From the IMG/VR virus record IMGVR_UViG_3300021387_000463, positions 171,001-235,000 of that record: a stretch of DNA of 64,000 nt; one strand, given 5' to 3'. Shown here in pieces: positions 41,899 to 61,088 of the stretch (positions are counted from its first letter, which is position 1; the number at the start of each line of letters is the position of its first letter). This stretch comes from a virus. Its lineage: Duplodnaviria; Heunggongvirae; Uroviricota; Caudoviricetes. A program made the position numbers and the translations under genes. Under the pieces are notes generated by a model that worked only from the letters and a program-made list of their open reading frames with translations, was not told the origin of the DNA and made no database searches.

Positions 41899-42015
41899 AA
41901 ATCATTAATGTATTGAAGATTTCTTCAAAATTTTTTGGTAGATTCAAAAAGATTTCGTATCTTTACATCGTGAAAGAAATTAAATCAGTTATTAACAATT
42001 AAGAAAGAGTTAGTT

Positions 42016-48655: not shown

Positions 48656-48729
48656 TCTCAAAGGTTAAACGAAGTTAAAACACCGAAAAAATTTGGTCAG
48701 TTCAAAAAAATTTCGTACCTTTGCATCAG

Positions 48730-49502
48730 AATTAGTAACGAGGGTTGCGATACCCTCACCTAAAAAGAAAGAAATAATGGAAAGACCTCCGCCCAGTTAA
48801 AGGGCTATAGTTATGTCGTTAATGTAAAGGTTAGAATAATAAGGTTGAGGGAGTGACCTTGAAAAACCCTACAAAGAAGTTATGATTAGAGACCGACCCT
48901 AAGTAAAGAATATATTTACCGCCTCTACCCATGTCAATGTGCATGGCTTGGCAAGGTCATTCGACCAAAAACGAAAACTTTAAGCCCCCTAAACGCTTAT
49001 GTTCCGCCCCCAATCCGCACCAATATGATAGAGTGCCGATGTCATTGGGCGAGTTTATCTGCCGATTATACGCTGCCAAACTGCCAAAAGGCTGCGATTC
49101 ACGGCTGTCCGTTAGAAGCGTTAGGGACTTGTTAGAACGATGGAAGTTAAGCCAGTATAAGCCACTGCCCCCCAAAACGTGCGCACATATCTGAGGGGCG
49201 TGCCAAAAGGTTATAAATCGTTCATTTTATTAACATGATGGGGCATTTGGGACGCGACAACTAAGTGATTATAAGCCGAGCGTTGTTCACGCCACCGTCG
49301 CCCTCAAAAGATAAGTTGTGTAATCAACCCTACTCACAGCGACTATGACGTTAATCGTTTGCGGTGTTGCCATAGTATGCTACTAAAGGTGTGAGAAACA
49401 AGTGAGGTGGATTCGATGCGCCCTAAGTGGGGATGCCGAACTGCGCTGCATTAAGTTGCACTCGCCTTTGCCATCATGGACTTTGGACGTGTCCCACCTC
49501 AC
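48730..49502 (+). ncRNA. Candidate large structured ncRNA (~770 nt)
   Basis: Own promoter (48716), no credible long ORF, raised GC, many stems including 49402-49410/49494-49502; ends at a tRNA-like element. Confidence 0.65.
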
Positions 49503-49510
49503 ATTTTTAA

Positions 49511-49582
49511 GCCTCAGCTAGCTCAGTTGGTAGAGCACTACGTTTGACGTAGGGGTCGTTGGTTCGAGTCCAACAAGGGGCA
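49511..49582 (+). tRNA. Degenerate tRNA-like element (short anticodon loop, broken acceptor base)
   Basis: Canonical D arm and T arm; anticodon arm CTACG-TTTGA-CGTAG; only 5 acceptor pairs. Confidence 0.7.
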
Positions 49583-49653
49583 CAAAAATGCTCGTTTTGC
49601 GTTGTGGTAACGCTCTTTGTTTTCCATAATTTGAATTGTTAGGTTTTTAGTTA

Positions 49654-49695
49654 GATGGGGTGATGTCGTGAGACATTTCCCCATTTGTATTTTTT
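49654..49695 (+). terminator. Rho-independent terminator, GTGA loop
   Basis: atggggtgatgtc-gtga-gacatttccccat-ttgtatttttt. Confidence 0.75.
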
Positions 49696-49769
49696 AACAT
49701 AAAATTTTTGGTAGATTCGTTATTTTTTCGTATCTTTGCATTGTCAAAACAAATAAAGCATTAAAGATT

Positions 49770-52017: not shown

Positions 52018-52146
52018 CACTTTAATCTCCTTTACCAAGTGGGAAATGTTAAAGATTGTTATAATCCAGACATTTCTCACTAATTTTTTTGGTAGATTCA
52101 TTATTTTTTCGTATCTTTGCATCACAATTAAAAAGGAGATTATATT

Positions 52147-54796: not shown

Positions 54797-54979
54797 TTAT
54801 GGCAACATTACATATATATTGGGATGATGATGTAACCGTTGAGTTGCGTTATTTCCCATCAGAAAAGAGTGCAAAGGAATACGCTAAACGCAATGGTGTT
54901 GTAAACTATAACATTGATTGAATTGTTAAAAATGTTAATTGATTTGGTTGAATGAAAAAGATTTCGTATCTTTACATCG

Positions 54980-55515
54980 CTTAAGAGAAATAAACGTGGG
55001 TCAAAATATCATCAAGGTTCTGCGCAGATTGGTGATGGTGGTGTGCGGTTATGCGGAAACCTAAAACTCCATCTTTCCCACATTTTAAGATATAGGGGGA
55101 GAACATTCAGAGGACTTAGGAAATCGGAGTGCCCCAAAGGAGAAATAACCTCGTCTAAGGGTAAGAGTAGGTCGTTTGACATTCCAATGCGCATTTGGAA
55201 GAAGAGGCTGGCTGTGTAGTCAAGTAAGGAAAGTGCAACTCCGCCACTAATTAGTTTCTCCTTTTAAGATATAAGACAAGATTGAGTTGAAAGATGGGGA
55301 TAGGCATCCATCGCAAAGAGGGAATAAGGTTCGCCTACACAAGAAAACAAACCTCCCATGTCTTGCCTTGTTATAGGGTGATTCCCTTGCAAGAGGTGAT
55401 AGATAAGGTAAACAATGGTGTAAAAACCAGAGTAGTTTCACCCTTCAATTTTTATCATTCAAATCTCCTTTCCGACCTCCAAGTGTTAAAAATTGCACTT
55501 GGGGGTTATTTTTTT
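54980..55515 (+). ncRNA. Candidate structured ncRNA (~530 nt)
   Basis: Own promoter (54967) and terminator (55474-55515); no credible ORF; long-range stems; 12-nt direct repeat. Confidence 0.6.
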
Positions 55516-55581: not shown

Positions 55582-55815
55582 ATGAAGTATTCATTAACAA
55601 TTGAAAAGAGTAATTCAAAGTATTACACTTACAAGAACAACATTCCAACTTGGGATAAGGTTCGTGAGATATTAAGAAGTGGTCTTGACCAGTGGACTAC
55701 TAAGGTTTATATCTATAAGTGGAGTTCAAACGACAGATGTCTTGGGCATGTGTGTGTCACAATGGGCAATCTGTGGAATGTGTTATCATACGGAACTGAT
55801 AAACTGTTAAAATAG
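55582..55815 (+). CDS. Hypothetical protein
   Basis: ATG 55582 after promoter 55549 (the ORF-track start 55294 is over-extended). Confidence 0.75.
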   Translation: MKYSLTIEKSNSKYYTYKNNIPTWDKVREILRSGLDQWTTKVYIYKWSSNDRCLGHVCVTMGNLWNVLSYGTDKLLK

Positions 55816-60484: not shown

Positions 60485-60559
60485 GATTAATTTGTTAAAA
60501 AGTGTAAAAAGTTATGAGAAAATTTTGGATTTAAGAAAAAAGGATATATCTTTGCATTG

Positions 60560-60810
60560 TCAATGAGACGGAAATAAAGTAAGGTTACAAGGTAATCACA
60601 CACCTCCTTTCTGTGATAAAATGGTTTTGCAAATCTAAAGATAACCTTAAAAATTCTCAGCGGAGAATACCTTACTTTCCAAAGATATATTTGAACGATA
60701 CCAGAGGAGAACTATCCGCAAGGGTAGATGTGGACAAATGGGCATTAAGTTCGTGCTTAATGTGTCACTTCGGTGACTTCGGTGATTCAAATTCACCTCG
60801 TTCAACTAAT
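60560..60810 (+). ncRNA. Structured ncRNA with two multi-stem domains and an anti-SD-like loop
   Basis: Own promoter (60547); closing stems 60576-85/60669-78 and 60691-98/60798-805; GCAA and cUUCGg tetraloops. Confidence 0.8.
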
Positions 60811-60890
60811 TAGTAAGTAATTGTAGTAATGGCTTGTACTGCGCTCTGTTCTATAGAGCAACTTGAGCGGTCCGATTCCGTGCTTACTAA
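60811..60890 (+). tRNA. Degenerate tRNA-like element (TCT anticodon, Arg-like)
   Basis: Acceptor TAGTAAG/CTTACTA, anticodon stem GCTCT/AGAGC, T loop TCCGATT, abnormal D arm. Confidence 0.6.
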
Positions 60891-60929
60891 CAATCTAATC
60901 TTTTTAATTGTTACTGATTCTTGTCGCAA

Positions 60930-60970
60930 GGGGTGAAAGCAATTCGGCTTTCACCCCAAAAGTTATTTTT
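60930..60970 (+). terminator. Rho-independent terminator
   Basis: ggggtgaaagc-aattcg-gctttcacccc. Confidence 0.75.
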
Positions 60971-61088
60971 GGCGATAATTGTTGACTTTTTCTTTTATTT
61001 TTGTTAATTTCTACTAATTTTTTTGGTAGATTCAAAATAATTTCGTATCTTTGCACCATCAAACAACAATTAAAAGGAGATTTAGAAT

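Follow-up and report, generated by a model that had tools for sequence, protein, structure and literature searches.

We analyzed a transcription unit of approximately 535 nt without a credible open reading frame in a 64,000-nt stretch of viral DNA (hereafter the window; positions 171,001 to 235,000 of IMG/VR record IMGVR_UViG_3300021387_000463). The source record is a 412,753-nt virus that carries approximately 50 tRNAs, a tmRNA, and a T4-like capsid protein, and it is a phage of the Bacteroidales type, with gut bacteria as hosts. From the type of its promoters we take the host to belong to the Bacteroidota, and the sample sets of its relatives presumably place its origin in the rumen. From 41 kb of the window onward there are approximately 28 near-identical promoters with a few small genes under each. 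The unit lies on the plus strand behind an early promoter (54943–54975), which we take to be of the Bacteroidota type and which consists of a −33 box and a variant −7 box. The latter, at 54967, differs by one change from the box usual in this phage, and the identical variant is found upstream of ordinary genes at 41954, 45334, 59850, and 61845. The unit ends at an intrinsic terminator on the same strand (55474–55515), in which a stem (55474–55507) with a folding z of −6.3 is followed by a U-run. These borders are the ones proposed in the initial annotation of this DNA, which was made from the sequence alone. The genes that flank the unit have no match to any Pfam or PHROG family.

Approximately 60 related loci were gathered via the neighboring proteins. 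Comparison of these loci showed that the non-coding stretch consists of the modules A (86 nt), a' (41 nt), B (129 nt), C (approximately 98 nt), and D (70 nt), and that these occur in 33 distinct arrays with 12 layouts of one to five modules each. The most frequent layouts are AC and C (8 arrays each), BC (5 arrays), and AaBC, A, and ABC (2 arrays each); AaBCD, which is the layout of the window, and ACD, CA, B, BA, and CAD were seen once each. Thus A, B, or C may stand alone, and reversed orders (CA, BA, and CAD) exist. Ten of the 33 arrays begin at most 70 nt from their own promoter, the other 23 come after a small gene, and the array is almost always placed directly before a terminator. Within the 413-kb genome each module is present in a single copy. 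Altogether, these results show a cassette of independently folded small RNAs, the modules of which are gained, lost, and reordered separately, like genes. The unit is real and non-coding and codes for four or five small RNAs, each with a fold of its own. Their families are previously undescribed: the Rfam search recommended initially, run for the window, L107, L113, L121, and L394 at both gathering and permissive thresholds, produced only chance matches. The gene-like shuffling suggests a kit of RNA tools for early infection.

The lack of a credible reading frame was confirmed. A frame of 173 codons starts at 55294 but shrinks to 16 to 54 amino acids in 15 relatives; it is long in the window because it runs in frame into a real 77-amino acid gene at 55582, and it is thus an artefact. 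Folding of the whole unit was unremarkable compared with shuffled sequences (z = −0.4), and the window copies of A, a', B, and C scored between −0.1 and −1.1 and that of D −2.3. The evidence for structure is therefore covariation and not stability. In A, 98.9% of the cells of the alignment were paired and 13 of 41 pairs had changed on both sides (0 to 2 in controls). In the 16 sequences of C, 97% of the cells paired and 11 of 25 pairs were double-changed, against 1 to 2 in slid controls, and covariation was found in stems of B and D as well. The covariation check suggested initially gave a strong result for A and C. The 4 stems listed in the initial annotation (54996–55000/55077–55081, 55136–55145/55255–55264, 55182–55187/55195–55200, and 55293–55297/55308–55312) are all part of this structure. 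The initial annotation had recognized the modular organization, and it had missed modules a' and D as well as the palindromic loops and a pseudoknot within C.

Module A is present in the window in a short form (54996–55082, plus strand, as are all the modules), with a 5-bp closing stem, a covarying P2 arm, and a truncated P3 domain. The versions in relatives measure 85 to 250 nt, with an inner domain that accepts insertions from none to approximately 100 nt, and the short copy of the window still scores 60 bits. The P2 loop (55020–55027) is an 8-nt palindrome that is invariant among relatives. In the long form a pseudoknot between this loop and the inner domain is possible, and no covariation was seen for it. 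One A copy (L121:3282–3531) contains an insert of approximately 85 nt in its variable hairpin that looks like a degenerate tRNA.

Module B (55136–55264) follows module a' (55095–55135), a bulged hairpin known from 3 distinct copies and seen only directly 5' of B. As read from alignments, the parts of B are in tRNA order: a closing stem, a D-like arm with GG, a middle arm (55182–55200), and a T-loop-like domain (55202–55247). The T-loop-like word is invariant, and the stem of this domain and a hairpin inserted in it covary. We infer that B has a tRNA-derived shape, in which a D/T elbow contact is putative. Through a short BLAST match, B homologues were found in the Lak-A and Lak-B phages and in another phage (L428), all beside tRNA genes: in Lak-B the homologue has tRNA genes on both sides, in Lak-A a tRNA-Val gene follows it closely, and in L428 a tRNA-Phe gene comes after it. 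B thus extends to Lak megaphages, which inhabit the guts of humans and baboons. A reading of B as resembling an RNase P S-domain was dropped for the tRNA-like one, with no match to RF00010 in the genome. The loop of the middle arm (55188–55193) is the palindrome TGCGCA in both the window and Lak-A; Lak-B has AGCGCT, L113 has TTGCAA, and L428 has GTGCAC, which makes 4 different palindromes. Three of 5 changed loops are still palindromic (rough chance 0.005). Palindrome switching of this kind has been used as evidence for intermolecular kissing in the OLE and GOLLD RNAs (10.1101/2024.12.08.627333), and at the anticodon position of B it suggests, on the basis of these sequences, kissing dimers. 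Module A carries the same palindrome, and both modules would probably form such dimers. B may thus be a natural tRNA-shaped RNA that dimerizes via its anticodon position. In Lak phages, a covarying stem-loop is located just 5' of the B homologue (L394:1286–1362 and L437:716–800); it has a 7-nt stem word in common with a' and is possibly homologous to it. The T-loop-like word of B also occurs in a short stand-alone intergenic hairpin in 4 unrelated phages (L425, L426, L434, and L436).

Module C (55273–55369) is a three-way junction with conserved A-rich junctions, the bases of which are nearly invariant. The loop of its P2 (55293–55312) kisses that of P3 in a pseudoknot (55302–55305 with 55333–55336), and this loop-loop pairing covaries, using different base pairs among subtypes, the divergent C2 included. 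A model built on C1 retrieves C2 at 37 to 43 bits, with noise below 16. Module D (55375–55444) is a 70-nt three-way junction with 3 distinct copies, in which 4 of 15 pairs have changed on both sides. At one locus (L122:3200–3430), B and C2 pieces are scrambled, which may reflect recombination, decay of the array, or an assembly error.

B is the more widespread module, and A and C were seen only in the group of the window phage. A and C were not found among the candidates scored, up to a cap, in 6 near-complete phages with 56% to 81% capsid identity, or by pattern search in GTDB genomes. Loose module patterns produced only chance matches across IMG/VR, and BLAST against annotated phages and plasmids returned only the promoter sequence and the short Lak match.

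The 12-nt repeat reported initially is exact and present in the 413-kb genome only in linker 1 (55083–55094) and linker 2 (55262–55273), both U/AU-rich and on the plus strand; the first 3 bases of linker 2 lie within the 3' arm of the closing stem of B, and linker 1 is a putative processing site. The linkers of relatives comprise a U-run and a variable AU-rich word. The exact 12-mer is thus not conserved, and its use as bait for a protein is not supported; the idea of a protein sponge proposed along with it is plausible for single folded modules. An anti-Shine-Dalgarno-like tail of 11 nt (55461–55471, plus strand) complements leaders of early genes (41454 and 61073), as had been described, and its core is kept in most arrays. 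However, it is not specific to the array RNA: tail and terminator are also located after protein genes (L067:4837, L068:683, and L116:23) and after the tRNA-Leu at window position 52026, and the tail is therefore a separate 3'-end element. Between 41400 and 62500 of the window many early genes have the word GGAG 5' of their start, although Bacteroidia largely ignore Shine-Dalgarno sequences.

The array is not a member of the ROOL, GOLLD, YrlA, or C4 families. It resembles ROOL and GOLLD (RF03087 and RF02032; 10.1101/2024.12.08.627333) in being phage-encoded and non-coding and in its kissing and palindrome-switching loops and, for B only, in the link to tRNA islands. However, those RNAs are single folds of 600 to 800 nt with a fixed domain order, whereas the array consists of small, independently shuffled modules and matches neither model; neither the window nor the region nor the genome contained a match to ROOL (RF03087), the genome search having been run without a positive control. 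The C4 RNA of phages P1 and P7 (PMC5320573) is likewise a small, stem-closed, three-helix phage RNA, and the processing model proposed below is drawn by analogy with it. Yet the variable loops of C4 are antisense to a target mRNA, whereas the loops of the array are invariant, palindromic, or paired within the module, and the Rfam C4 models did not match any array module. YrlA Y RNA (10.1101/312249), like B, has D and T loops resembling those of tRNA and takes no part in decoding, but it is circularly permuted and has a Ro60-binding stem and a location near Ro60, whereas in B the D-like arm comes before the T-like arm in the normal order; a Ro60/TROVE gene (PF05731) is absent from the genome (the control was positive in 2 genomes). 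The RNA anti-CRISPRs rAcrIIA1 and rAcrVIA1 (10.64898/2026.06.03.729762) are also promoter-driven phage RNAs of approximately 100 nt among small accessory genes, and C has words in common with the trans-activating CRISPR RNA (tracrRNA) of its host group. But rAcrIIA1 reproduces an entire guide, repeat and tracrRNA together, whereas C is without the repeat half and contains both a pseudoknot and an extra, inserted hairpin. Riboswitch and self-cleaving ribozyme families of Rfam 15 gave no match; the modules are located 3' of genes or alone, with the exception of a second, divergent C copy (L067:4074–4300) right after a promoter, which is followed by approximately 130 nt more of non-coding sequence and then by a gene with a Shine-Dalgarno-like leader, the sole 5'-leader position seen. 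In its working, the array is most plausibly closest to processed, tRNA-like decoy RNAs.

The best explanation, to which we give an even chance, is a cassette of independent structured RNAs, located in the early region that serves host takeover, which are cut from a precursor and act as decoys. Host RNA polymerase would transcribe the precursor early in infection, and host tRNA-processing nucleases would then cut the linkers and release stable, stem-closed small RNAs. Such cutting is suggested indirectly by the terminal stems, by the tRNA-cluster context of the B homologues, by the precedent of C4 RNA, which host RNase P cuts out of a longer transcript (PMC5320573), and by an AT dinucleotide at positions −2/−1, which is found in 38 of 52 tRNA and tmRNA genes of the phage against a background of 9%, and in 30 of 70 module boundaries. 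The modules, as abundant decoys, would occupy host proteins that recognize tRNA-like or structured RNA, with a different target for each module; RNA-targeting defence effectors and RNA-processing factors are candidates. A function as decoys for host RNA-binding proteins is the most likely role, at a little under an even chance, because the conservation of unpaired bases implies that they have a partner, and because counter-defence cargo shows just this kind of patchy distribution within an early island. Several observations weigh against these proposals. The AT signal is weak in A (4 of 19) and inflated by the AU-rich linkers; the sequences used for covariation are close kin, and counting cells overcounts events; B obtains no tRNA score (ARAGORN and RF00005), has 5 to 6 extra bases between its T-like stem and its closing stem, and carries no CCA; its loops in L088 and L117 are not palindromic; and for the 23 of 33 arrays behind a gene a role in cis would also account.

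That role in cis, in which the modules are blocks of 3' untranslated regions that stabilize early mRNAs or tune their decay or termination and the stand-alone units have lost their gene, is unlikely. In its favor, the 23 arrays mentioned share a transcription unit with the gene whose stop codon precedes them, and almost every array ends at a terminator, but the 10 arrays directly at a promoter keep their structure, the upstream gene varies among phages, B homologues are located in tRNA clusters, and the conservation of unpaired bases far exceeds that required of a stability hairpin. It is quite unlikely that C serves as an RNA anti-CRISPR by imitating the core of type II-C tracrRNA (anti-repeat and nexus) and tying up host Cas9. 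A phage mimic of a Cas9 guide is known in rAcrIIA1 (10.64898/2026.06.03.729762), and the unpaired words of C match the start of Bacteroidia tracrRNA in order, with 20 collinear bases and one hairpin (P2) inserted; the tracr motif itself was present in 39 of the 401 Bacteroidia genomes, with a control value of 1. However, this likeness was noticed post hoc, the C model obtains no score on tracr loci, cofolding of C with the host repeat gains −2.4 and 0 kcal/mol compared with −19.1 kcal/mol for tracrRNA, C contains no repeat or spacer part, and its nexus-like word is common to the tRNA-like module B.

A single large modular RNA that, in the manner of ROOL or GOLLD, folds and multimerizes in its entirety would fit the size of the unit, its phage context, and the kissing-loop and palindromic motifs, which are as in cage-forming RNAs. 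Nevertheless it is improbable: the 12 layouts, with their varying number, length, and order of modules, argue against one large RNA, conserved pairing between modules was not seen, and neither ROOL nor any other Rfam family matches. Of the RNA of ROOL-like size envisaged initially, its non-coding nature, modularity, and conserved structure remain. We consider it equally improbable that the RNA is an antisense regulator of translation, with a 3' tail blocking Shine-Dalgarno-like early leaders and the modules as a stabilizing scaffold. The 11-nt complementarity and the tail core in most arrays speak for it; against it, the same tail stands behind plain protein genes and a tRNA, it is missing from the L087 array, and Bacteroidia ribosomes largely ignore Shine-Dalgarno sequences (PMC10798248). 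Finally, a protein-coding function (the 55294 frame or minus-strand frames) or neutral sequence is scarcely credible. The 173-codon frame and the weak folding z of the window copies would agree with it, and it is already largely refuted by the lack of conservation of that frame, the covariation, insertions that respect the stems, and the invariant loops.

Returning to the decoy cassette, a more specific version, doubtful at present, is an interchangeable repertoire shuffled like accessory anti-defence genes, in which each RNA neutralizes a different host system; B would then be a dimerizing tRNA mimic, and C a mimic of the Cas9 tracrRNA core or another protein decoy. If true, this would be an RNA-only counter-defence island in large Bacteroidales phages. 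The gain, loss, and reordering of modules in the early region points to host-driven selection. The 4 covariation-supported families absent from Rfam 15 measure 70 to 150 nt, small enough to be made, probed, and solved directly, so that the function of phage non-coding RNA becomes testable module by module.

Other features of this phage were also observed. Between a 132-amino acid gene and the array promoter there is a real 40-amino acid gene (54799–54921), kept in L003, L005, and L113. In the tRNA cluster of the genome (108–147 kb) most genes have no encoded CCA, and one tRNA has a CUA anticodon, though TAG is the stop codon in just 22 of the 261 long genes. A long, GC-richer non-coding unit (window 48716–49700), to which modules A to D have no match, ends in an odd tRNA-Gln at 49511. 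A further promoter-driven, gene-free unit is located at 60547–61046 of the window, and a word near 60600 in it resembles the 3' end of Bacteroidota 16S rRNA.
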